The notes under the pieces are model-generated. The model was given only the letters and a program-made list of their open reading frames with translations. It had not been told where the DNA came from and did no database searches. Of a stretch of DNA of 53,474 nucleotides, positions 1,954 through 43,886 are shown piece after piece. This DNA comes from Escherichia coli. Its GTDB lineage: Bacteria > Pseudomonadota > Gammaproteobacteria > Enterobacterales > Enterobacteriaceae. Position 1 is the first letter of the stretch; every line of letters starts with the position of its first letter. The position numbers and the translations under genes are program-made. The stretch lies in assembly GCA_017639185.1 (NCBI GenBank), contig GCA_017639185.1_4892.1; one strand, given 5' to 3'.

Positions 1954-3093
1954 TTAGCGAGTGAAGTTAATCAGGATGTCGCTGGAGTGGATTGCACCAG
2001 CCAGCTTAATCGCGATTTGCATTACAACGGCCTGACGAGCTTCACGCTCATCCAGAGGCTGGTCATCTACGTCAGGGATGTAGATGTAGAAACCTGTTTC
2101 GAGTCGGTCACCATAAGACAGTGTACCAAACTCATCACCGTACCAGATACCAGGTGCAACCAAGCCGTTGTCGACAGCCTGCTGACAAGCAACAGCTGCA
2201 GCACCGGTAAGGCGCTCGTGACCTTTGTTCGTCTGCGGCACCTTCGTGGGTGACGTAGCGATTGAGTTGAAGACGTAAGTCTGAACTGCATTACAGAACC
2301 AGTCTAGACCGTGTACTTCATCCCAGAAGCGCGGCGGCTTGGACGTACCAAGGACAGTACCTTCTGCAAGCATAGCAAAGGTGCTGTAGTAGGTGTACCA
2401 GTTAATACCCAGCGCTTTACACTTGTTAGCTTCAGTAAGCGTTAAAGTGTTGTTCGGTGTAATACCAGGCTCTTGTTTGAACTTCATGGTAATCGTGGTG
2501 CGGTTACCAGAGAAGTTAACGGACAGAGCACGCGCCATAGCAGAGATGTCTGCGTAGTGCTGGTTGTTCTTATCATACTGAAGCCACATATTGTTGTAGC
2601 CTTTACCAGCCAGAACTTTAATCGGGTTGGAGTCGCTGTTTTCAATATGAGTTGCTTTAGTGGTAGTATAGCTGCAACGCTTTTTGTCGTAAGCAGCAAC
2701 AGTTGACGCCAGCAAATCGATGTCATCGTCAGACAGCTCACCAGTAGGTGGGAGCGGACGCAGAACATACCAGTCAGGGTACACATCGTTGAATGCTTTA
2801 ATAGCCGCATCCAGAGTAGAGGTGTTGTTCCATGAGGCGATAACTACTGAACGAGGACGCGGAGATTGTGCAAAGAAAATCTTCAACGCGCCAAGCACAA
2901 CTGAACCAGTACCCCAATAAGACTCGGCTTCAGAGTAGCTGCCGATTTCAACATAGTGTCCGTTTTCGCTGTCAGGAAAAGCAGTGCCAGGGTCCTGAGT
3001 TAAAAGAGCCAGCTTACCGAAGTCACCTTTGCTGATACCAGTTGGAGTGTTGTTCAGTTGAACGTTTACAATCTGGTTTACATTCAACGGCAT
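1954..3093 (-). CDS. tail sheath-like protein
   Basis: 379-aa ORF in the sheath position (before tube, chaperone, tape measure), with baseplate-like genes further downstream. Call by synteny and size. Confidence 0.5.
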   Translation of the reverse strand: MPLNVNQIVNVQLNNTPTGISKGDFGKLALLTQDPGTAFPDSENGHYVEIGSYSEAESYWGTGSVVLGALKIFFAQSPRPRSVVIASWNNTSTLDAAIKAFNDVYPDWYVLRPLPPTGELSDDDIDLLASTVAAYDKKRCSYTTTKATHIENSDSNPIKVLAGKGYNNMWLQYDKNNQHYADISAMARALSVNFSGNRTTITMKFKQEPGITPNNTLTLTEANKCKALGINWYTYYSTFAMLAEGTVLGTSKPPRFWDEVHGLDWFCNAVQTYVFNSIATSPTKVPQTNKGHERLTGAAAVACQQAVDNGLVAPGIWYGDEFGTLSYGDRLETGFYIYIPDVDDQPLDEREARQAVVMQIAIKLAGAIHSSDILINFTR

Positions 3094-3179
3094 TTTTGAT
3101 TACCTCTTGGGTGGACTTTCCGGCCATTATACTCAGTAAGTTTACCCAAGTAAATGGCCGAGGCAAAGTTAATTAATTT

Positions 3180-5959: not shown

Positions 5960-6026
5960 CTGGAGAATCCTCTTATTGGGTGCGCCAGCTTATTATAGGC
6001 TGGCGCCTCGGTTAAGTAAATAGTGG

Positions 6027-11423: not shown

Positions 11424-11477
11424 ATAAAGCCTCCAGCAAGTTTAGTCCGATTATATACCAGAACTTTATACGTGTAA

Positions 11478-16706: not shown

Positions 16707-16883
16707 GGGTGTCGTCCTCGTTAATCCGGATAGTCGGGATTATAACGAGTTACGCGAAGTAAGTAAACAGAATATAAAAATGAAGTGTCTAGAGAGATGA
16801 TGAGAAAGTCTACAGTAGAAAGGCGAATAAGTAGCTTATATAGATGAAGAACTAGCTTAGACGCCTTTATATTTATCCGGTTT

Positions 16884-19518: not shown

Positions 19519-19755
19519 AATGTTACCCACAAGTAGGAGACCGTGAGGCCGTTTGATGATTCACATTAATGATAGCGCGTGGAGGAGAGAAAGTACACCA
19601 CTTTTTAGTGAGTGTCTACACAATTTCCGAAAAATATAAAAAAATTTTAGAGGGGCTTCACTTATTATTGTGTTAAGCAAAAGGTTAGCTCCTGCCGTAT
19701 TACTCTGATGATGATTGGTCCTGATAAGGAGAAAATACCAAAAAATAAAAAAAAT

Positions 19756-19828
19756 TCCGCTGGCTCCTGGCGGGTAGCACCCTTGCGAAATTACCCCCCG
19801 CCGCACCTATTTCGATTGAAATGATTAC
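19756..19828 (+). repeat. control-region repeat unit A1
   Basis: About 70 bp, roughly 70% identical by eye to the unit at 19933..20003. Shared blocks CGGCTCCT, GCACCC, ACCCCCGCCG, ATTT.GATTGA, ATTAC. Confidence 0.6.
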
Positions 19829-19932
19829 TATGGTAACTATTGCGATTGATACAATTACCGTGTGAACTACTTCGGCCGTTATAGTACAAAGCGTCTATAA
19901 TTCAGATTGAAATTATATTTTTATAAATAATT

Positions 19933-20003
19933 TCGCCGGCTCCTTTAAGTGGCACCCCTACGTTACTATAACCCCCGCCGACCATTTTGGATTGAGTAAT
20001 TAC
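19933..20003 (+). repeat. control-region repeat unit A2
   Basis: Second copy of the unit at 19756..19828. Confidence 0.6.
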
Positions 20004-20149
20004 ATGCGAAACTATATCAATTGCATATGAGAACCACTCTCAATCGCAAGTGATTATCATTTCTAAAAACTTGCATAAACTTGCAATTCTTTTATGTACA
20101 ATCAATAGCGATTGGTCTATTATATATTTATTGAATGTGATGACTGATT

Positions 20150-20166
20150 GACCAGTCTAACTGGTC
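20150..20166. promoter_or_regulatory. perfect palindrome (candidate operator)
   Basis: GACCAGT-CTA-ACTGGTC, 7-bp arms. Overlaps a TTGACC -35-like hexamer. Confidence 0.45.
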
Positions 20167-20312
20167 TGGAGGATATTGGTATGGTTTAGATTTGGTAGGT
20201 AGTACTTAACCAGTCAACAGGTACATCTGGTAGATGTCAATGGTACCTTTTGCTCTTTAACAATTTGGTAACATGTTTCTTGTTGATAGTAACACTAGTA
20301 ATAGTTTCAACC

Positions 20313-20338
20313 AGTGACTATTGGTATCAATAGTCACT
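20313..20338. promoter_or_regulatory. perfect palindrome (candidate operator upstream of first early gene)
   Basis: AGTGACTATTG-GTAT-CAATAGTCACT, 11-bp arms with 4-bp spacer, about 30 bp upstream of the ATG at 20367. Confidence 0.5.
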
Positions 20339-20366
20339 CCTGGAAACTAATACAAAGGTAACTATT

Positions 20367-23300: not shown

Positions 23301-23482
23301 TTGGCTTAATCCTGGCAACATGTGTGGCTACTCATGATTGTAGTTACAAAATTGTTGAATCCAACCCTGAATGGACTACCGTTGAACAATGTGCCGCCGA
23401 TAGTCCATACACCTTACTGAATCTTGGTATTATCCCTGCCAAAAATCAGCGTGTTATTTGTGACGAGCTGAAACAAGATTAA
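23297..23482 (+). CDS. small protein with N-terminal hydrophobic segment
   Basis: GTG start overlapping the upstream stop. N-terminus IGLILATCVATHDCS. Confidence 0.35.
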   Translation: MIGLILATCVATHDCSYKIVESNPEWTTVEQCAADSPYTLLNLGIIPAKNQRVICDELKQD

Positions 23483-23910
23483 TTGACGTGATATTGAGTG
23501 CCGGGCGCAACGTAATAGTTGTAGACCCGGCAAAATTGTTCCCATGTTAATTCTACTAGACCCACAAAGAGGCGATTTGATGCCTCGTTAAAAGTCGTGC
23601 CACTTGGAAAACAGTCAATCACATCAGCCTTATTCATCACCACGGTAGGCTGTTTTCTTGGTAGTTCGTATATCAGCACTGGCATCTTGTTCTGAGCCTT
23701 TGCCGATGCCGCACACTGTCTCCACCATGTTCCGATAGACTTGGTATTGTGCTTCTTCAGTTCAACACTGAAAAACGGCACACCCAGCAAGTCATCCCCG
23801 CCATTAATAGACTGTTGAAGATTGCGCTCAACAGTTAATCCGAACGAGCTATTAAATTTTTTAGCCATTTTACGCTCAAAGTTCTGCCCCTTGGCTCTAA
23901 TATTTACCAT
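23479..23910 (-). CDS. PD-(D/E)XK nuclease, Hjc-like Holliday-junction resolvase candidate
   Basis: KGQNFERK...GGDDLL...FSVELKK pattern (E, D, ExK spacing) read by eye. Stop codon shares bases with the convergent plus-strand stop at 23479..23482. Confidence 0.35.
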   Translation of the reverse strand: MVNIRAKGQNFERKMAKKFNSSFGLTVERNLQQSINGGDDLLGVPFFSVELKKHNTKSIGTWWRQCAASAKAQNKMPVLIYELPRKQPTVVMNKADVIDCFPSGTTFNEASNRLFVGLVELTWEQFCRVYNYYVAPGTQYHVN

Positions 23911-24410
23911 GCACTGTTTCCTTTTAAAATCTGGACTACGCGGTCCAAAGAGTTACCATTTTCTACTTGTTTTTTCCATACTGTCATAATTCTTGACTTA
24001 AGCCTTGCTCTTCCGTGGCAGTCAGCTGTAGCATACGCACGGAGTAAGTCTATTTCATCAGACAGTAGATCCAGCGCTGGTTGAAGCTCTGGTGCAACAT
24101 AATAACCATTCCCACGAATGGTTGGGAATACTTCTTCGTATGCCCAGCGCTGAAATGCTTTAGCTGATTCAAGATGTGAACCGAATATAGCCTGATAAAT
24201 ACCAGGTTCAGTTACCCATACGGCTCCTTTGTCATCAGTAATTTTATAATCGCTGTCTAACCTTTTATAAAGTTTTTTCGAGTGACTGTAGCCTAGCGCT
24301 TTAGATAAATCGCTTCCTTTAACAACAATGAGGGGAACCATTTTGGTTCCTCTATTAATTGATGAAAATGTGATATTTTTACCTTCAAATACTTTTACAA
24401 TTGGATTCAT
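23904..24410 (-). CDS. Bro-N domain protein (antirepressor-like)
   Basis: N-terminal FEGKNITFSSINRG...VKGSDLSKALGYSHSKKLYKRLDSDYK matches the Bro-N pattern. Start uncertain (24410, 24425 or 24473). Confidence 0.5.
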   Translation of the reverse strand: MNPIVKVFEGKNITFSSINRGTKMVPLIVVKGSDLSKALGYSHSKKLYKRLDSDYKITDDKGAVWVTEPGIYQAIFGSHLESAKAFQRWAYEEVFPTIRGNGYYVAPELQPALDLLSDEIDLLRAYATADCHGRARLKSRIMTVWKKQVENGNSLDRVVQILKGNSAW

Positions 24411-24671
24411 AGTTGCACAACTCATCTGTTGAATAATAAATATATTATAACACACACTAACATACAATAACATAGTAAATATCACCGAAGCTTGCCACGC
24501 CTGGCTTTAGACATGCCTACGAATTATTTATCAGTCCGGTTTTTTATTATTTTTCGCCAGCGTAAATTTTTTTTCATCCGGTTCTGATATTAATAAAGAG
24601 ATAAACCGGATCATACATATAGACGCCTCTAAGTAGCTGTTTTTATTACTTCTAATATAATTAATAATATA

Positions 24672-24692
24672 TAATAATAATAATAATAATAA
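24672..24692. repeat. (AAT)n microsatellite inside an AT-rich intergenic region
   Basis: ATAATAATAATAATAATAATAA read directly. Confidence 0.8.
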
Positions 24693-24869
24693 ATAAATAT
24701 ATACCCCCTTTTATCCGGTACTTGGATCCCCTTATTACCCCCCTTTTTCTTTATAAAGGGCTCCATATATTTACTAATTCATGTAAAAAGAAAAGAGTAT
24801 ATAAAACAGTAGCTTAAGTGCACTTAATTCGAAAAACACGGTTTATTTATTCCATAACTAGTCTACCGG

Positions 24870-28369: not shown

Positions 28370-28738
28370 GTGAGTAACCAACCGTCTATGTCGTTAGTGT
28401 ACCAGGCACCAGCTAAGACTGGTGAGTTTGCAGGTACTATCCACGTAATTCATGCGGAAGAAATCATCAGCATTGCATTCGTGGAAAAAACAAAGAAAGA
28501 AAAAGCTTTACGCGTCACCACTAAAAGTGGTATAATAGACGTAACGGATATTGCTGCGGGCCAAGCGCTACGTACAATGTTCAATAACTATTGTTTACTG
28601 ATCGGTGCAACTATGCACATGCAACCTGAGGAAACAACTGATGGCACTGACCCCACAAGAACTGGAATCGATGGACACGGAACAGCTGTACGACAAGCTG
28701 GCGAATCTGAACCGCTGGATGGCACAAGCGAAAGCTGA
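28370..28738 (+). CDS. hypothetical protein (3' end overlaps next gene)
   Basis: GTG start with GGAG RBS. Last ~30 codons overlap the 28641 gene in another frame. Confidence 0.4.
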   Translation: MSNQPSMSLVYQAPAKTGEFAGTIHVIHAEEIISIAFVEKTKKEKALRVTTKSGIIDVTDIAAGQALRTMFNNYCLLIGATMHMQPEETTDGTDPTRTGIDGHGTAVRQAGESEPLDGTSES

Positions 28739-29081
28739 CCAGGAAACATTGCGCCGGACCATTAAGGCTCGTCTTGAACGCGACATGATTATCAACCGCG
28801 GTAAAGAAGGTACACAAACGGTTGAGTTCAGTATGCATGGCGTACCTGGTAAACTCAAGGTTGAGCAGAAGGTTAACCGCTCACTTGACCAGAAGCTTGT
28901 GCCTGACGTAATGAAGAAGTTACCGAAGACTGTTGTTGCCAAGCTGTTTAAAACCAAGTATGAAATGTCAGTTACTGCATACCGTAACCTGACACCAGAA
29001 CAGCTGGCTATCGTCGACCCTGTTGTGAAGACTTCACCAGGTATTCCGACTGTAACATTCACACCGGCGGATACGGAATAA
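28641..29081 (+). CDS. hypothetical protein
   Basis: ATG at 28641 with GAGGA RBS. 146 aa. Confidence 0.5.
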   Translation: MALTPQELESMDTEQLYDKLANLNRWMAQAKADQETLRRTIKARLERDMIINRGKEGTQTVEFSMHGVPGKLKVEQKVNRSLDQKLVPDVMKKLPKTVVAKLFKTKYEMSVTAYRNLTPEQLAIVDPVVKTSPGIPTVTFTPADTE

Positions 29082-29096
29082 GCCGAGTAATTAAAC

Positions 29097-29124
29097 GGGG
29101 CTTAGCACAAGCCCCCTGACTTTT
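29097..29124 (+). terminator. hairpin / weak terminator
   Basis: GGGGC-TTAGCACAA-GCCCC followed by CTGACTTTT. Confidence 0.35.
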
Positions 29125-30080: not shown

Positions 30081-30194
30081 ATGTGTACGTCACCACTCAC
30101 TAATGATATAATGTCTTTAACGGTTAAGCAATAAAGCACATGCGCAGGGAATGTCTCTGGCATACAATCAAACTGGTATACAAGGAAACAAGAA

Positions 30195-31100: not shown

Positions 31101-31148
31101 TAACTTTGGCGGGTACAAGCCCGCCAGTCTTCCTCCCTGGAGAGTACT

Positions 31149-31595
31149 ATGGACCTGTTCAAGACTAAATATATTGTTTATAAAGCGCCAACTACTGAAG
31201 AGCATAACGTTGTGTATGCAGTTGATGTGCTAAACGTCAATGCCTTCTTCTCTTGTCGTTTCTTTATCAGTACAAAGGCACGTGCTGACCTCAAAACAGA
31301 GCTTACAGAACGTGTCGTGCACGGTATTGTTAACAGCGACGAGTTCCGTAACTTCTGGAGTAATAACGGCGTTGAGCTTCCGTCACGCGAGGATGGTAAT
31401 CTTACTGTTGTGCGTGTTGACAAAGCACACAAACAATTGTTTACGTTCAACGTATACAGCGACCATCTGAAGGGCGTCACCATCCCTTTGTGGGTAGAAG
31501 CATACAACGAAGAACATGCAGGAGTATTGCTCGATGGCGTTATAGCCAACCTCGGTTTGTCACGGCTATCGTGTCAAGCTGTTAGTGTAAAATAG
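31149..31595 (+). CDS. hypothetical protein
   Basis: 148-aa ORF. Confidence 0.5.
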   Translation: MDLFKTKYIVYKAPTTEEHNVVYAVDVLNVNAFFSCRFFISTKARADLKTELTERVVHGIVNSDEFRNFWSNNGVELPSREDGNLTVVRVDKAHKQLFTFNVYSDHLKGVTIPLWVEAYNEEHAGVLLDGVIANLGLSRLSCQAVSVK

Positions 31596-31599
31596 TAGT

Positions 31600-31630
31600 G
31601 TACTTACCCCATGTAAGTGGTGTATAATAT
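31600..31630 (+). promoter_or_regulatory. candidate promoter (extended -10 TGTGTATAAT)
   Basis: TATAAT at 31623..31628 preceded by TG. Adjacent inverted repeat ACTTAC/GTAAGT. Upstream of the gene at 31656. Confidence 0.45.
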
Positions 31631-31655
31631 CCTCATACACATGAGGAGAGAGAAT

Positions 31656-31886
31656 ATGAGCATCCAAACTATCGAACAATTTCGTTCAACATGTAAGCTT
31701 GTCGCAAAAGATAACTGCGATTTATGGACATATGGCGTTCATCATGACTGGCACATCGTCGAGTCATTTGATGAACCCACAACGTACTCCGTCTGTGGCG
31801 AGGAGTTCGACACTCTGGAAGAAGCCGAAGAAGCTCTTTATCGTATGTATTGCGACGAAGAATCACTTTACGAGGACTATCATTAA
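31656..31886 (+). CDS. small acidic Cys-rich protein
   Basis: ATG 31656 after GGAGAGAG. 76 aa. Stop overlaps the next start (TAATG). Confidence 0.45.
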   Translation: MSIQTIEQFRSTCKLVAKDNCDLWTYGVHHDWHIVESFDEPTTYSVCGEEFDTLEEAEEALYRMYCDEESLYEDYH

Positions 31887-32770
31887 TGGTTCAGATTGTA
31901 TCTACTAAACAAGCCGTAGAAAATAAGCGACCTAAGGTCGCTATTTACGGCGCGTCAGGTGTTGGTAAAACCACCCTGGCTAAGACCTTGCCTCATGACA
32001 AGGTTCTTGTCATTAATGCCGAAGGCGGTTTGATGTCAATTGCAGACGCTGACATTGACTCTACGCCAATCAATACGTTCAACGACATTCTGGCGTTGTA
32101 CAAATGGCTTACAGAAAGTAAGGATGCGCAGAAGTATGAGCATCTGATTTTCGACTCGTTGTCAGATGTAGCTGAAGTTTGTCTGGACTACGAGAAGTCG
32201 CAGGTTAACGACAAACGACAGGCATATGGTAACACCAACGACAAGATGATGTATATCATGCGCCAGTTCCGTGACTTGCCTTTCAGCGTTGCATACCTGT
32301 GCAAGCTTGAGAAGAACAAGGACGAGGTTACCGGTGCAATGTTGTACTCACCTCTTATGCCTGGCCAACAGCTACCTAAGCAGTTGCCGTACCTGATGGA
32401 TGCGGTGCTTGCTTTACGTATGACTGCGCCTGATGCCAACGGTAACAGCGAGCGCTACATCCAGACCCAGCCTGACTACCAATGGGAAGCTAAGTGCCGT
32501 AACGCACCAGGCCGTGAACTGGATGCACGTGAACCTGCAGACCTGGGCTGGATTTATGACAAGCTGCAAGGCTATCATCCTTACCAGCTGTGGTACTATC
32601 ATCCGGAGTCAGACAGCTACTTGCTTTTGACAGGTCGAGCTGCAGAACAGATGCAGAACGACGACCCGAACGTGCAGCTCACTAAAATCGGTTCGGACGA
32701 ATCGAAAGAGAAGCACCAAGCCTGGATGGCGAAGAAAGCCGCTCAAGCTGAAAAAGAAACCAGCAAATAA
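31886..32770 (+). CDS. RecA-fold ATPase (AAA_24 / Sak4-like recombination-associated)
   Basis: Walker A VAIYGASGVGKTTLAK near the N-terminus, then VLVINAEGG. Located with a nuclease and a helicase. Confidence 0.6.
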   Translation: MVQIVSTKQAVENKRPKVAIYGASGVGKTTLAKTLPHDKVLVINAEGGLMSIADADIDSTPINTFNDILALYKWLTESKDAQKYEHLIFDSLSDVAEVCLDYEKSQVNDKRQAYGNTNDKMMYIMRQFRDLPFSVAYLCKLEKNKDEVTGAMLYSPLMPGQQLPKQLPYLMDAVLALRMTAPDANGNSERYIQTQPDYQWEAKCRNAPGRELDAREPADLGWIYDKLQGYHPYQLWYYHPESDSYLLLTGRAAEQMQNDDPNVQLTKIGSDESKEKHQAWMAKKAAQAEKETSK

Positions 32771-32775
32771 AAGTG

Positions 32776-32816
32776 TTTACGCCATGATAAAAAGTGGCGT
32801 ATAATAAGCATCACGG
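32776..32816 (+). promoter_or_regulatory. candidate promoter with embedded inverted repeat
   Basis: TACGCCA (32778..32784) / TGGCGTA (32805..32811) inverted repeat running into TATAAT (32810..32815). Confidence 0.45.
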
Positions 32817-32877
32817 CCGAACGCTGCCGGTAAAGCGTTAAACGAAATTAAATTAAACTTAAACAGGATACCAAACA

Positions 32878-33423
32878 ATGGCTGAATTAAACTTCAACAG
32901 CTCTACCGTCGAACCGCAACAGTCTTTTGACCCGATCCCGAAAGGCTGGTACAACTTCATGATTGAAGAGGTTGAGCTGAAGCCGACTAAAGCAGGTACC
33001 GGTTCTTATCTGTCCCTGCGTCTGAAAGTGCAGGAAGGTGAGTTCGCTAACCGTGTTGTGTTTGACATGATTACTTACTCCAACCCTAACGCACAAGCTG
33101 TTGAAATCGGTCATCGCAAACTGTCTGCATTGTGCCGTGCTCTGGGTATTGTTGAACTGACTTCTACTGGCCTGCTGGAAAACCGTATCGTAGCTGGCAA
33201 AGTAGGTATTCGCGTTGACAAGACCGGTGAGTACGACCCGCAGAACGATATTCGCGAATACAAAGCGTCAACTGAAGCAACTACTGCAGTAGGCGGTCAG
33301 TCTCAAGCAACTGCATCGACGACGAAGAAAGTAGGTGCAGGTGCGGGTACTTCAACGAAGGCGAATGCTACTGCAACGGCACCTGGTGCTGATGACGGTG
33401 AAGCAGCTCCTTGGGAAGAGTAA
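32878..33423 (+). CDS. putative ssDNA-binding / recombination accessory protein (DUF669-like by position)
   Basis: 181 aa downstream of the AAA_24-like ATPase. Gly/Ala/Thr-rich flexible C-terminus ending in acidic DDGEAAPWEE. Synteny-based. Confidence 0.3.
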   Translation: MAELNFNSSTVEPQQSFDPIPKGWYNFMIEEVELKPTKAGTGSYLSLRLKVQEGEFANRVVFDMITYSNPNAQAVEIGHRKLSALCRALGIVELTSTGLLENRIVAGKVGIRVDKTGEYDPQNDIREYKASTEATTAVGGQSQATASTTKKVGAGAGTSTKANATATAPGADDGEAAPWEE

Positions 33424-33443: not shown

Positions 33444-33470
33444 AATAGGGGCTTCGGCCCCTATTTTCGT
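33444..33470 (+). terminator. UUCG-tetraloop hairpin / intrinsic terminator
   Basis: AATAGGGGC-TTCG-GCCCCTATT followed by TTCG. Confidence 0.55.
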
Positions 33471-33970: not shown

Positions 33971-34832
33971 CGACCTGCAGAAACGTATTGATGTCAAGAT
34001 AGTCGAAGCCCACGAAAGAGAAGAACGACGCGGGCATCTTGGAGCATCGCAGATAGGACACAACTGCTATCGCTATCTTTGGCACGTTCTGCACTGGTCG
34101 TTCAAGGAGAAGTTTACCGCTAAGCAACTTCGTCTGTTTGAACGTGGTAACCTTGAAGAAAGCAGAATTGTGAAGTGGCTTCGTTCCGTATGTGATGAAG
34201 TGCTGGACGTCAACCCTAAAACAGGTAAGCAGTGGCGCATACACGATTTCAATGACATCTTCTCTGGGTCTTGTGACTGTGTAATCAAATACAAAGGCGT
34301 ATGGGCACTTGCTGAATTCAAAACGCATGGTGATAAGTCGTTTAAAGAGCTAATCAAGCTCAAGTCTGTTAAAGCCAGTAAGCCGGTACACTATGCTCAA
34401 ATGCAAGTATACATGCGGAAGCTTAAGCTGAATCAAGCTGTGTATATTGCAATTAACAAGAACACCGATGAGATGTATTTTGAAGTGGTCGAGATTGACT
34501 TACTTGAAAGTGATATACAACTGAGCAAAGCAGAGGCTGTCGTATATGCGGAATCTGGTTTGGATATGCCGAAGATTTCTGAATCGCCTATTTGGTGGGA
34601 GTGCAAGCCAGGAATGTGCACGTACCACCACTTGTGCCACAAAGGAGCAATGCCCGACAGGAACTGCAGAACCTGCCACTACAGTAAACCGCTCCAGGGC
34701 AAAGTGTGGTATTGTAACAAACACCAGAAAGAGCTCGAAACAACCGAAGAGCAATTAGCAGCTTGTGATGATTATCGACCTGCTGATGTCTTCCCGCAGG
34801 ATGAGAAGCCCGTTAAACTTTCCTTAAAATAA
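33954..34832 (+). CDS. PD-(D/E)XK exonuclease with C-terminal Cys cluster (Cas4/RecB-like)
   Basis: ATG 33954 after GAGGAG. Core CDCVIKYKGVWALAEFK (D...ExK). Cys cluster CKPGMCTYHHLCH...CRTCH. Confidence 0.55.
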   Translation: MPSPFDDLQKRIDVKIVEAHEREERRGHLGASQIGHNCYRYLWHVLHWSFKEKFTAKQLRLFERGNLEESRIVKWLRSVCDEVLDVNPKTGKQWRIHDFNDIFSGSCDCVIKYKGVWALAEFKTHGDKSFKELIKLKSVKASKPVHYAQMQVYMRKLKLNQAVYIAINKNTDEMYFEVVEIDLLESDIQLSKAEAVVYAESGLDMPKISESPIWWECKPGMCTYHHLCHKGAMPDRNCRTCHYSKPLQGKVWYCNKHQKELETTEEQLAACDDYRPADVFPQDEKPVKLSLK

Positions 34833-34840
34833 AAGTATAC

Positions 34841-34865
34841 TTTACCACAAGGAAGTGGTATAATA
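34841..34865 (+). promoter_or_regulatory. candidate promoter TTTACCAC-N6-GTGGTATAAT
   Basis: Inverted repeat TACCAC (34843..34848) / GTGGTA (34855..34860) fused to TATAAT (34859..34864). Upstream of the HNH gene. Confidence 0.5.
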
Positions 34866-34893
34866 TATAAAGTTAATGAGGAGATGATAACAA

Positions 34894-35394
34894 ATGTCAC
34901 GTAATGCTGAAGCAAGAGAGGCTCGTGAAGCTGGGTTAACTCGGTTTATATCTTCTTATCCTTGTCGTAAATGCGGAGGAACAGAGTTTAAAGTAGCCGA
35001 CGCTTCTTGCTGGACATGTAGGAAAGTAAAACAAAACGCTGTTAGGGCAACAGAAGAAGGTAGACAGTACGCCAGGGATGCTTGTAATAAGTTCCGTAAA
35101 GAAAACCTTGAAGAAGAAAGAGCACGAGGTCGTGCTTATTTCAAGACTGAGCGGGGTAGAGCATTAAACCGTGAAAGACGAACAAGACGAAGAGCTATTG
35201 TAAAACAACAAACACCTGGCTGGGCAGACTTGGAGGCTATTAGAATGTTTTATCTTAATTGTCCAGCTGGCTATGAAGTGGACCACATTATTCCACTTAA
35301 AGGCAAATTGGTATCAGGTTTGCATACTCTATCAAATCTGCAATACTTACCTGCAGACGTCAACAGAAGTAAAGGAAATAAATATGAGCTTTGA
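34894..35394 (+). CDS. HNH endonuclease
   Basis: Zinc-ribbon CRKCGGTEFKVADASCWTCRK, then HNH core GYEVDHIIPLKGKLVSGLHTLSNLQYLPADVNRSKGNK. Confidence 0.75.
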   Translation: MSRNAEAREAREAGLTRFISSYPCRKCGGTEFKVADASCWTCRKVKQNAVRATEEGRQYARDACNKFRKENLEEERARGRAYFKTERGRALNRERRTRRRAIVKQQTPGWADLEAIRMFYLNCPAGYEVDHIIPLKGKLVSGLHTLSNLQYLPADVNRSKGNKYEL

Positions 35395-37836: not shown

Positions 37837-37852
37837 TAGCGCTGATCTGAAC

Positions 37853-37870
37853 GCACCTCTACGGAGGTGC
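37853..37870 (+). terminator. UACG-tetraloop hairpin (processing/stability element or weak terminator)
   Basis: GCACCTC-TACG-GAGGTGC, perfect 7-bp stem, 17 nt after the upstream stop. No U-tract. Confidence 0.4.
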
Positions 37871-38409
37871 ATTCAATGGACATCCTTACATCTCTCTTCT
37901 TATCAACAATCAATTAAGCCTGGTGTGTTGAAACAGTGAGGGTGTCCAGTGAATGCAGTTCAATTCTGCTCGCTGACCGAGATTTGGTAAAAGCCGTGAT
38001 GTGTGAGGTTCGATTCCTCCAACGCTGAAAAGGGTATTGGCTCGCTACCTTGACCCCAGGCGCCTGGCGTAGACGGCGGTCACAATTTTAGTTGTGGTGT
38101 TTTGGCGTATCTTTTTGACACCCGTCGGGTGCAGGTTATCCACAGTAACTCAGGTGCTAAGACACCACAACTAAGGTTGTACTCGCTGTGTGCTTTTGCC
38201 ACTACAACTGTGTGATAAGTGTAACGCTATATACTTTTCATGTGGTAAGAGCACACAGCAAGTAACGCATATGTGATTGGCTACTTGATGGTACCTCCTT
38301 TCTGACTCGTCGCGGGGATTAAGTCGGTCAGTCCTTTAGCCAATCTCATATGCGCTGCCTGGTTGCATAACTGCGATTCCTTGTATCTCCTTACGCCACC
38401 CTGCCAAAA

Positions 38410-38440
38410 GGACCAGTTAACGCTGGTCCTTTTTTATTTT
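38410..38440 (+). terminator. intrinsic terminator
   Basis: GGACCAG-TTAACG-CTGGTCC followed by TTTTTTATTTT. Confidence 0.7.
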
Positions 38441-38460
38441 ACCCGAAGCATAAAAAGTGC

Positions 38461-38490
38461 TTTACCACTAGAGAGTGATGTGGTATAATA
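38461..38490 (+). promoter_or_regulatory. candidate promoter TTTACCAC-N11-GTGGTATAAT
   Basis: Same architecture as 34841..34865. TATAAT at 38484..38489 with flanking TACCAC/GTGGTA inverted repeat. Confidence 0.5.
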
Positions 38491-38515
38491 AGTTATCTTT
38501 TAGAGGAGAGATACA

Positions 38516-38914
38516 ATGAATCTACAACGTGTCGCTGAAGCTTATTATAGAATTTGGATACTTCGTCTTGAAGGTCAAATTGACTACGTAAACACTGTCG
38601 GTCGTGAAGACTACCTGCCTGCATCCTCTTTCCATGAGGTATGTAACCTTGCTCAAACACTCGAGCATGAATTTGATAAGGTTAAATTTACACGCGAAGC
38701 GCAAAATAACTTTATCAAATTTGAAACAACCATGCGTTGCAAGTTCCCGTTTATCAAGCGTATATCTCGCACCGGCCTCTTCATTGTCCCCTTTCCTGTG
38801 GGTAAAGACCGTTGGGACATATTAGAGAAGGCCCGACATATAATCTGGTCTACTGAAACAAAACGTAAGTTTATCGAAACTGTTTGTAAGGAGTTAAGAA
38901 ATGCGATTCAGTAA
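38516..38914 (+). CDS. hypothetical protein
   Basis: 132-aa ORF with GGAGAG RBS. Confidence 0.5.
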   Translation: MNLQRVAEAYYRIWILRLEGQIDYVNTVGREDYLPASSFHEVCNLAQTLEHEFDKVKFTREAQNNFIKFETTMRCKFPFIKRISRTGLFIVPFPVGKDRWDILEKARHIIWSTETKRKFIETVCKELRNAIQ

Positions 38915-40385: not shown

Positions 40386-40401
40386 CGGGGCTTCGGCCCC
40401 G
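40386..40401 (+). terminator. UUCG-tetraloop hairpin
   Basis: CGGGGC-TTCG-GCCCCG, same core as the hairpin at 33444. Confidence 0.4.
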
Positions 40402-40408
40402 TTATACT

Positions 40409-43386: not shown

Positions 43387-43662
43387 ATGTCTAATATAGG
43401 TTTAGAGTATAAGGTAGATGAAACGCTTAAGTTAAGGGCGAAGGAGATACTAGACGCCTCAGGCTGCACGTCAGGCCTGGACTGGTTTATGAAGATATTC
43501 CAGGAAGAACCAGAAGCTGTTGCCAAAAAGATTTACAAGAGCGATATTTTACGACAGGATATTCCTGTGCTGTGCTTCCAGATACGTGGCGAGGATGATT
43601 ACTGGACGCAACAGCTATGCGATGAATTAGAAACCCTGTATTGTGAAGAAGAGGGAAAATAA
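43387..43662 (+). CDS. hypothetical protein
   Basis: 91-aa ORF. Confidence 0.45.
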   Translation: MSNIGLEYKVDETLKLRAKEILDASGCTSGLDWFMKIFQEEPEAVAKKIYKSDILRQDIPVLCFQIRGEDDYWTQQLCDELETLYCEEEGK

Positions 43663-43886
43663 TGATTGAGTCTATGCGCACATCGGACATTACTGATATG
43701 GCTTCTGAAGCTGAACAAGTTGCCCGGGACGCAGCACTATCGAACCGAGTAAGATACACCGGAGTAAGCCCGCTGACGTGCTACCAGTGTGGGGAAGACA
43801 TTGAAGAAAAACGACGTCAGCTTTTACCCGGTACAGTGCTGTGTGCTGCATGTGCGCAGTATAACGAGCTGAAAGGAAAACGCTAA
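43662..43886 (+). CDS. TraR/DksA-family C4 zinc-finger protein
   Basis: CYQCGEDIEEKRRQLLPGTVLCAACAQ matches CxxC-N17-CxxC. Confidence 0.65.
   Translation: MIESMRTSDITDMASEAEQVARDAALSNRVRYTGVSPLTCYQCGEDIEEKRRQLLPGTVLCAACAQYNELKGKR

Follow-up and report, generated by a model that had tools for sequence, protein, structure and literature searches.

What is an inverted repeat doing when its 3' arm runs straight into the −10 hexamer of a promoter? The question is raised by a stretch of 53,474 nucleotides deposited as Escherichia coli (NCBI GenBank assembly GCA_017639185.1, contig GCA_017639185.1_4892.1; this whole stretch is called the window below), which is a near-complete 53,474-bp Rosemountvirus genome. 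A sequence-only reading of it had proposed host-polymerase promoters with an extended −10 element, whose −10 region can be sequestered in a hairpin or bound by a dimeric regulator. We find that inverted repeats fused to TATAAT are far more frequent in the window than chance allows. The explanation that we consider probable, if only by a little, is a composite cassette of the promoter-early stem-loop (PeSL) type, that is, a sigma70-type promoter with a nested RNA stem-loop that would act on upstream transcripts.

With an 8-kb query, Salmonella phage renfri matched the window along the full 100% of the query at 98% identity; other matches, at 92–98%, came from dozens of phages of Salmonella and Escherichia. 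The plus strand carries a replication and nucleotide-metabolism block at ∼27.8–43.9 kb (Sak4, SSB, dCMP deaminase, a Cas4-like exonuclease, helicase, ThyA and DNA polymerase), and on either side this block is flanked by minus-strand genes for structure and lysis.

Inverted repeats fused to TATAAT

At 31623, 32800, 34859 and 38484 on the plus strand, an inverted repeat of 6–7 bp runs with its 3' arm into a perfect TATAAT. The 5' arms lie within or just past a T4-like −35 box (TTTAC/GTGTAC), and the complementarity extends into the hexamer itself (TACCAC/GTGGTA, TACGCCA/TGGCGTA and TACCCCA/TGGTGTA). The four sites named by the sequence-only reading (34841–34865, 38461–38490, 32776–32816 and 31600–31630) are built as it described them; it had overlooked a fifth copy at 28507–28536 and nested hairpins on the minus strand at 3122–3159, 5982–6020 and 16717–16749. 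The cassettes and their parts are as follows.

34830–34896 (+): helicase-operon cassette, P_hel (the index site of the sequence-only reading), from the stop codon TAA (34830–34832) through the Shine–Dalgarno (SD) sequence GAGGAG (34878–34883) to the ATG at 34894
34841–34865 (+): P_hel motif, TTTACCAC aaggaa GTGG TATAAT, with the 6-bp stem TACCAC/GTGGTA
34835–34841 and 34856–34864 (+): P_hel boxes, −35-like GTATAC/TATACT and TGn plus TATAAT (TATAAT itself at 34859–34864)
34843–34860 (+): P_hel hairpin, 5' arm TACCAC (34843–34848), loop AAGGAA (34849–34854), 3' arm GTGGTA (34855–34860)
32768–32880 (+): SSB promoter cassette, P_SSB, from the stop codon TAA (32768–32770) through a conserved 72-nt leader to the ATG at 32878
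32776–32816 (+): P_SSB motif, TTTACGCCA-N10-TGGCG TATAAT, with the 7-bp stem TACGCCA/TGGCGTA
32776–32781 and 32800–32805 (+): P_SSB boxes, −35 TTTACG and TATAAT
32778–32801 (+): P_SSB hairpin, 5' arm TACGCCA (32778–32784), loop (32785–32794), 3' arm TGGCGTA (32795–32801)
31593–31658 (+): P_316, upstream of a 76-aa open reading frame (ORF) and Sak4, with −35-like GTGTAC (31598–31603), TATAAT (31623–31628) and the ATG at 31656
31600–31630 (+): P_316 motif, TTACCCCA tgtaag TGGTG TATAAT, with six of seven pairs formed and one C·T mismatch
31605–31624 (+): P_316 hairpin, 5' arm TACCCCA (31605–31611), loop TGTAAG (31612–31617), 3' arm TGGTGTA (31618–31624)
38406–38518 (+): P_385, terminator and promoter before the nucleotide-metabolism/DNA-polymerase operon, with an intrinsic terminator with a T-tract (38406–38433) and the ATG at 38516
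38461–38490 (+): P_385 motif, TTTACCAC-N11-GTGG TATAAT, with a 6-bp stem
38461–38466 and 38484–38489 (+): P_385 boxes, −35 TTTACC and TATAAT
38463–38485 (+): P_385 hairpin, 5' arm TACCAC (38463–38468), loop (38469–38479), 3' arm GTGGTA (38480–38485)
28507–28536 (+): fifth motif copy, TTTACG-N18-TATAAT, whose arms ACCACT and AGTGGT enclose a 3-nt loop (aaa), the second arm being fused to ATAAT
30083–30112 (+): promoter of the same family without a stem in the window, GTGTAC-N18-TATAAT (fold z of +1.2)
3122–3159 (−): 14-pair hairpin around the sheath-gene promoter, P_3131(−), in an 86-nt gap; TATAAT at 3126–3131, outer helix GGCCATT/AATGGCC, inner helix TACTTGG/CTGAGTA fused to TATAAT
5982–6020 (−): tail-gene promoter, P_5997(−), in a 67-nt gap; −35 TTTACT at 6015–6020, TATAAT at 5992–5997 in the loop, stem GCGCCAGC (5999–6006) / GCTGGCGC (5982–5989)
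16717–16749 (−): hairpin over the −10 of the 16744(−) promoter, CTCGT-TATAAT-CC ... GGATTAACGAG, with a 2-nt bulge

The surroundings of the plus-strand sites support reading them as putative promoters of the host sigma70 type, each with an A-rich upstream stretch, a −35-like box, a 17–18 nt spacer and a perfect TATAAT (TTTACG-18-TATAAT, TTTACC-17-TATAAT, TATACT-17-TATAAT and TGTACT-18-TATAAT). P_316, P_SSB and P_hel begin 3–8 nt past a TAG or TAA, in sequence of the aaaataaaag type, and a strong SD sequence and an ATG follow 25–75 nt downstream of the intergenic plus-strand sites. GAGGAG or AGGAGA stands 6–10 nt upstream of the ATG at P_316, P_hel and P_385, and P_SSB has its 72-nt leader instead. 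The BP63 record carries predicted promoters at the orthologues of P_SSB, P_hel and P_385, and the S144 and AEV23 records carry several. The boxes, the placement between stop codon and SD sequence and these predictions thus agree with the proposal that the host polymerase is used. No phage RNA polymerase has been described for the Rosemountvirus group, the S144 authors assume the host polymerase (PMC7432712), and a large polymerase ORF was not found in the window. The extended −10 part of the proposal applies to three of the five sites: T−15 G−14 is present at 34859, 38484 and 28531 and absent at 32800 (GGCG) and 31623 (GGTG).

The frequency of the arrangement was compared with chance. A motif search returned three matches in the window to CCAC-N(3–22)-GTGGTATAAT (0.02 expected), and the stricter ACCAC-N(3–20)-GTGGTATAAT likewise returned three (0.00 expected). 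The window has 45 TATAAT hexamers in all; four of the seven at promoter-like sites of the plus-strand block are abutted by a stem of 6 bp or longer with no interruption, versus one of the 38 others. In single folds, P_hel reaches −9.7 kcal/mol (z of −3.3) and P_SSB −11.8 kcal/mol (z of −3.75); P_316 has a z of −0.9 to −1.4 in the window and the copy at 28507–28536 one of −2.8 to −3.0. RNA-fold z-scores were also obtained for each promoter against shuffles in which TATAAT was held fixed. These are −3.0 for P_SSB, −3.2 for P_hel, −3.0 for the intragenic copy at 28531, −3.9 for P_3131(−) and −4.0 for P_5997(−), all with nested stems, and −2.4 for P_16744(−), with its hairpin over the −10. Weaker values belong to P_385 (−1.4; its stem decays in most lineages) and P_316 (−0.9; its stem is imperfect in the window). 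The z-score is ∼0 for P_11455(−) and P_45232(−), which have a separate terminator upstream, for P_27804(−) in a divergent gap and for P_30107 and P_22618, which have no stem; P_13371(−), with no clear stem, gives −1.2 to +0.4.

The fifth copy is placed differently from the others, inside a conserved 122-aa ORF (28370–28738) in which GGT ATA ATA encodes Gly-Ile-Ile. This ORF overlaps the next gene (28641–29081) by ∼100 nt, and the third codon positions of TTTAC and TGGTATAAT at the site are unchanged in every lineage. The copy may be an internal promoter within coding sequence.

Compensatory changes in the stems

Orthologous cassettes were taken from five lineages: Rosemountvirus species; Loughboroughvirus (S144, AEV23, ZCSE2, SE4 and ES2-BCU-3); the fHy-Eco03 group with one IMG/VR contig; Erwinia phage SOI901; and one ENA metagenomic contig. 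The IMG/VR and metagenome scans made for deeper covariation yielded only two new lineages. In the hunt for distant relatives the identity of the helicase family dropped from at least 80% to less than 40% with no intermediates; in Seurat and Vid5 the exonuclease and helicase genes abut, with no promoter gap between them. Formal covariation counts cover P_hel, P_SSB, P_3131(−) and P_5997(−). The P_hel and P_5997(−) alignments were cut to the hairpin before counting, as MAFFT misplaced gaps (also in P_316) when TATAAT was included.

The P_hel stem reads TACCAC/GTGGTA in the window, TATCAC/GTGATA in Loughboroughvirus and the fHy-Eco03 group, CGCGC/GCGCG in SOI901 and ACGC/GCGT in the metagenomic contig, and its loop, A(A/T)GGAA, is invariant across lineages. 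Over eight distinct orthologues 93.8% of cells are paired, three of the six pairs show double changes and one pair is found in four Watson–Crick forms; the covariation score was reached by none of 500 shuffles, and slid controls were 5–58% paired. The six distinct orthologues of P_SSB are 100% paired, with one double change from G:C to A:U and two changes to G·U. On the minus strand the inner helix of P_3131(−) becomes TACACAG/CTGTGTA in S144 and TACTTG/CGGGTA in fHy-Eco03 and SOI901 (four lineages, 96.4% of cells paired, two pairs with double changes, six G·U cells and no A·C). The P_5997(−) stem becomes GTGCCTGC/GCAGGCAC in fHy-Eco03 and AGCCAG/CTGGCT in SOI901 (four lineages, 100% of cells paired, double changes in three of seven pairs, score reached by seven of 500 shuffles).

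Beyond the formal counts, P_316 has a perfect 8-bp stem (ATACCCCA/TGGGGTAT) in S144, SE4 and the SE13-type Rosemountviruses, TACC(T/C)C/GGGGTA in the fHy-Eco03 group and ATAACC/GGTTAT in SOI901. The stem at 28507–28536 is kept in S144 (ATACCA ctaa TGGTAT) and is weak in SE4 and the fHy-Eco03 group. At 30083–30112, orthologues in relatives carry TCAC-N9-GTGA or ATCAC-N9-GTGAT fused to TATAAT. The stems persist across ∼25–30% nucleotide divergence in five promoters. These data support conservation of structure, rather than of sequence, in the cassette stems, and the compensatory substitutions bear out the hairpin of the sequence-only reading. An outer helix that pairs the −35 box with the region past the −10 appeared in single-sequence folds and was dropped, since RNAalifold gave it no support across lineages; an Rfam search of the whole window found no family reaching its gathering score.

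The same comparison bears on the second half of the earlier proposal, in which the arms would be half-sites in the operator of a dimeric phage or host regulator. The TATCAC/TACCAC arms of P_hel presumably resemble lambda operator half-sites, and at lambda PR, too, the operator is fused to the −10, as the 3' arm is here. Within one genome, however, the stems of different promoters are unrelated in sequence (CGCGC/GCGCG, TACATCA/TGGTGTA and ATAACC/GGTTAT, promoter by promoter, in SOI901) and the two arms are set 3 to 11 nt apart, with no half-site in common. At P_hel the arms are fully replaced (CGCGC/GCGCG) while the loop is constant, and the arms covary, unlike those of lambda PR/OR1. When 22 small ORFs were scanned with Pfam and PHROGs, neither a helix-turn-helix nor any other family of classical DNA-binding regulators came up, and no repressor; the matches were a DksA/TraR zinc finger (43662–43886), an Ant/KilAC-like protein, a RusA-like resolvase and an HNH endonuclease, the only regulator-type match being the anti-repressor-like (Ant) protein at 23904–24473 (−). 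With unshared arm sequences, variable spacing and no DNA-binding regulator family among the 22 small ORFs, a dimeric regulator is highly improbable. Differing stems within one genome together with compensatory changes argue instead for base pairing over a protein-binding sequence.

Gap length and the possible role of the stem-loop

Where the hairpin sits, and what else fits into the gap, suggests what it may do. The position of the nested hairpin varies: four plus-strand sites have it in the spacer, whereas at 5997(−), 3131(−) and 16744(−) it surrounds or covers the −10. At the SOI901 counterpart of 16744(−) a hairpin over the −10 is predicted as well. When all intergenic junctions were folded, most non-overlapping junctions of the plus-strand module had a hairpin just past the stop codon, among them those at 29097–29115, 31109–31130, 33447–33468 (with a U-tract) and 40387–40404. 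In gaps of at least 100 nt, at 11455(−) and 45232(−), a canonical T-tract terminator stands directly ahead of the promoter and there is no nested stem; P_385 has its canonical terminator (38406–38433) and yet a nested stem in the window. These intrinsic terminators occupy the same functional position as the nested stems, which differ from them in having neither a U-tract nor a GC-rich stem.

The PeSL-type reading would work as follows. Host RNA polymerase would use the strong sigma70-type promoter of each cassette, and the stem-loop would be nested at promoter positions that the polymerase does not read, namely the spacer, sometimes sharing the TAC of the −35 and the (G)TA of the −10; this nesting would be due to genome compaction. 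The new transcript would begin ∼7 nt past TATAAT and so lack the stem-loop, which would form only in RNA arriving from the upstream gene. In that read-through RNA it would most likely attenuate or terminate, or protect the 3' end of the upstream message. A gap of ∼60–110 nt would place the stem-loop inside the promoter, and one of at least 100 nt free of other signals would have room for a canonical terminator just before it. The sequences themselves show the anatomy of the cassettes, their non-random occurrence, the compensatory changes, the relation to gap length and the likeness to published PeSLs; we infer that the promoters are active, that the helix acts in RNA rather than in DNA and which job it does at the RNA level.

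Compensatory changes by themselves fit pairing in DNA and pairing in RNA equally, and the repeat could instead be a DNA-level switch that extrudes as a hairpin or cruciform, or folds in single-stranded DNA, to turn the promoter off or on; T−12/A−11 and part of the −35 would then leave the duplex. The 3' arm does end at −11 in all four intergenic plus-strand sites, and the arms use the TAC of the −35 and the TA of the −10. Extrusion from duplex DNA is, however, energetically implausible for stems of 5–7 bp with 6–11-nt loops. Where a maintained helix has changed on one side only, the outcome is G·U on the sense strand (three cells for P_SSB, six for P_3131(−), one or two for P_316), which would be an A·C mismatch on the other strand, and the only A·C seen in these helices is one terminal pair in P_hel. 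The hairpin is not constant in position relative to the boxes, which is hard to reconcile with one promoter-level mechanism; in SOI901 the P_hel stem stops at −14, clear of the −10; and nesting tracks the length of the gap and the absence of a separate terminator. We consider a DNA switch quite unlikely. The sense-strand G·U pairs, the dependence on gap length and the replacement by a canonical terminator favour an RNA stem-loop on upstream transcripts over sequestration of the −10 in a DNA hairpin. As few independent events underlie it, we hold this preference at moderate confidence.

The structural evidence would serve equally well for an RNA stem-loop whose job in the read-through RNA is something other than termination: a barrier to 3'-exonucleases after cleavage in the AU-rich UAUAAU, a processing signal, a block to Rho loading or a hairpin-dependent pause ∼11 nt ahead of the internal start site. 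The lack of a U-tract after the nested stems speaks against classical termination, and GC-rich tetraloop hairpins without a U-tract also occur at the junctions 29097–29115, 31109–31130 and 40387–40404. Against this stands the one stem-loop reported as assayed in T4-type PeSLs (PMC2839356), which acted as a terminator. We regard such a job as possible but unlikely.

Several observations weigh against the PeSL-type reading. The nested stems were not listed by the terminator scan, their tails read UAUAAU... or ACCCAA... with no U-tract, and they are weak (−5 to −12 kcal/mol) with loops of up to 10–11 nt, so that they are not canonical intrinsic terminators. The P_385 stem is perfect in only part of the Rosemountviruses and missing or degraded in most lineages: it is mismatched (GTAG or ATAG) in the SE13-type phages, Loughboroughvirus, SOI901 and the metagenomic contig, and partly compensated in the fHy-Eco03 group (TACTG/TAGTA). 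The P_316 stem is absent from one metagenomic relative and lost or degraded in yarpen; SOI901 keeps it despite a terminator-like hairpin upstream. P_13371(−) lies directly after a stop codon and has no clear stem. The excess of G·U over A·C is based on few independent events, and the constant fusion of the 3' arm to −11/−12 is also compatible with a promoter-level role in DNA. Finally, initiation and termination in this phage are both predictions from sequence.

PeSLs, other known systems and neighbouring features

PeSLs were reported first in phi1 and RB49 and later in PST/T4 and nt-1/KVP40 (PMC2839356; PMC4122927), and we compared the window with what the available parts of these two papers describe. 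[quoted passage not shown] One phi1/RB49 stem-loop cut lacZ read-through like the rrnB T1 terminator, and one cassette gave ∼13,000 Miller units (PMC2839356). The promoter consensus in T4/PST is TTTACW-N17-TAYWAT (PMC4122927). The window cassettes have the same intergenic, A/T-rich start at the upstream stop codon (the intragenic copy at 28507–28536 being the exception), −35 and −10 boxes ∼17 nt apart, a stem-loop between or overlapping the boxes, an SD sequence with an ATG and several copies per genome. From this match of anatomy they are filed as PeSL-like cassettes of a group of phages new to the design: among the searchable phage papers, the term PeSL is used for T4-type phages only, whereas the window is a 53-kb Rosemountvirus, and the S144 paper (PMC7432712) mentions no hairpin or inverted repeat. 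The stems in the window do not have the GGGG...CCCC form of PeSL stems and are shorter. The genes that the cassettes flank here are core replication and structural genes, whereas those of T4-type phages are described from ORFan-rich hyperplastic regions. Compensatory stem evolution is seen here and not mentioned in the available parts of PMC2839356 and PMC4122927, and the promoter and terminator activity that was assayed with lacZ in T4-type phages is a prediction for the window cassettes.

The resemblance is closest at P_hel, where 34833–34864 of the window is identical at 29 of 31 positions to T4 (NC_000866) 2429–2459, minus strand (E = 9e-5 against 2.3 Gb); ∼615 T4-type records carry the matching element. 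The likeness may be due to exchange of a cassette or to convergence. In T4 the element lies in the 54-nt gap between gene 60 and rIIA.1 (2404–2460, minus strand) with the same layout, namely a TAG stop, TTTAC, TACCACA agga TGTGGTA fused to TATAAT, GAGGA and an ATG. A spacer stem as a general trait of T4 early promoters was ruled out, since eight of the nine strict-type promoter matches in 100 kb of T4 have only 2–5 bp of internal complementarity. T4 early promoters are UP/−35/TGn/−10 ('uber') promoters with extra conserved information (Hinton 2010, PMC2988021); the window promoters share with them the A-rich upstream sequence, the −35-like TTTAC, the TGn in some copies, the perfect TATAAT and, as far as their sequence suggests, the use of unmodified host sigma70 polymerase. 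The early hairpin promoters of N4 also include a short stem-loop as part of the promoter. N4 hairpins have 5–7 bp stems and 3-nt loops and form in the template strand, and the polymerase that reads them is a single-subunit enzyme carried in the virion. The window differs in its 6–11-nt loops at the four intergenic sites (3 nt only at the intragenic 28531), in its full sigma70 −35/−10 pair and in that no phage polymerase was found in it or has been described for the group.

The T4 match also bears on a further explanation, that the repeat is a recombination linker (a homology patch for modular shuffling) or a mutational by-product (template switching in quasi-palindromes, with the helix unselected). 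PeSLs have been proposed to mediate gene shuffling (PMC2839356; PMC4122927), the near-identity with the T4 cassette suggests exchange, and P_hel is a site of lineage-specific insertions; for a by-product, the TAC and GTA of the two boxes are a built-in seed of complementarity. Variable genes do lie near the cassettes, with insertions right after P_hel in two lineages, and the region ahead of P_385 varies (tRNAs in SOI901, small ORFs in others). No ORF lies between two cassettes, however, as inserted genes with a linker on each flank would, and most cassettes flank conserved core genes. The persistence of the stems over the divergence given above weighs against this explanation, and the absence of stems from promoters with a separate terminator is not predicted by a purely mutational origin. 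We give this explanation little credence.

A number of other features lie near the cassettes. Between P_hel and the helicase gene is a 166-aa HNH/endonuclease VII-like ORF (34894–35394, +) that overlaps the helicase start; among the relatives examined it is present only in the window and renfri, and AEV23 and ZCSE2 have a different 49-aa ORF there. In the 5' leader of the 76-aa ORF downstream of P_316, a hairpin CCTCAT acac ATGAGG (31631–31646, +) pairs with the SD region (CTCCT...AGGAG at the equivalent position in S144) and may be a translational control element. The 72-nt SSB leader (32806–32877, +) holds a block, CGAACGC-N8–10-GCGTTAAAC, that is kept in every lineage and whose fold is a small hairpin; by analogy with T4 gene 32, the block may be an operator for autoregulation. 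Ahead of the P_385 terminator are ∼570 nt of non-coding sequence (37837–38405) with imperfect long inverted repeats (38073–38189, 38180–38264 and 38259–38361), and for the whole 680-nt gap before P_385 folding is predicted to reach −260 kcal/mol. Near 38005–38019 stands GGTTCGATTCC, which is similar to the T-arm of a tRNA, but neither ARAGORN nor Rfam finds a tRNA; SOI901 has tRNA-Pro and tRNA-Gln at the position of this non-coding stretch.

Farther away, the last gene of the plus-strand module (43662–43886, +) encodes a 74-aa DksA/TraR-type C4 zinc-finger protein (Pfam PF01258, E = 6e-10); the S144 authors suggest that the DksA/TraR-type protein redirects host polymerase (PMC7432712). The 'putative sigma factor' of the ZCSE2 record proved to be a Sak4-like ATPase under a different name. 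An early region of mixed orientation contains a RusA-like Holliday-junction resolvase (23479–23910, −) and the Ant/KilAC-like protein (23904–24473, −), and the gap beside the primase operon has an AT-only stretch with a (TAA)n run (24650–24710, +; tataattaataatatataataataataataataataaataaatatata). Between the structural block and the 20–27 kb block, ∼850 nt (19519–20366) hold no convincing ORF, with AT-rich runs and repeated GATTGA / attgcgattga motifs, and may be an origin or regulatory region.

Judged on their sequence, the cassettes are a known design in a new phage group, real stem-loop promoters that match the PeSL cassettes of T4-type phages. The design, in which promoter and stem-loop share the same 40 nt, is thereby extended to a group unrelated to T4-type phages, the therapeutic-candidate Salmonella and E. 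coli phages of Rosemountvirus, Loughboroughvirus and their relatives, and the present analysis adds the compensatory-substitution evidence for selection on the stems. It also suggests a rule, a nested stem for a short gap and a separate terminator for a long one, that can be applied to any compact phage genome. For annotation and engineering it matters that the 40–60-nt cassettes are probably both stop and start signals, so that read-through into neighbours may be altered when a gene is moved or deleted along with no more than 'its promoter'. More speculatively, and in our view improbably, the stem-loop may stop or pause read-through polymerases right on the internal promoter, or the cassettes may move between unrelated phage families. 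If the former were true, the output of each gene block would be set by its local promoter alone; if either were, virulent enterobacterial phages would have in PeSL-like cassettes a general building block open to exchange, and not a peculiarity of T4.

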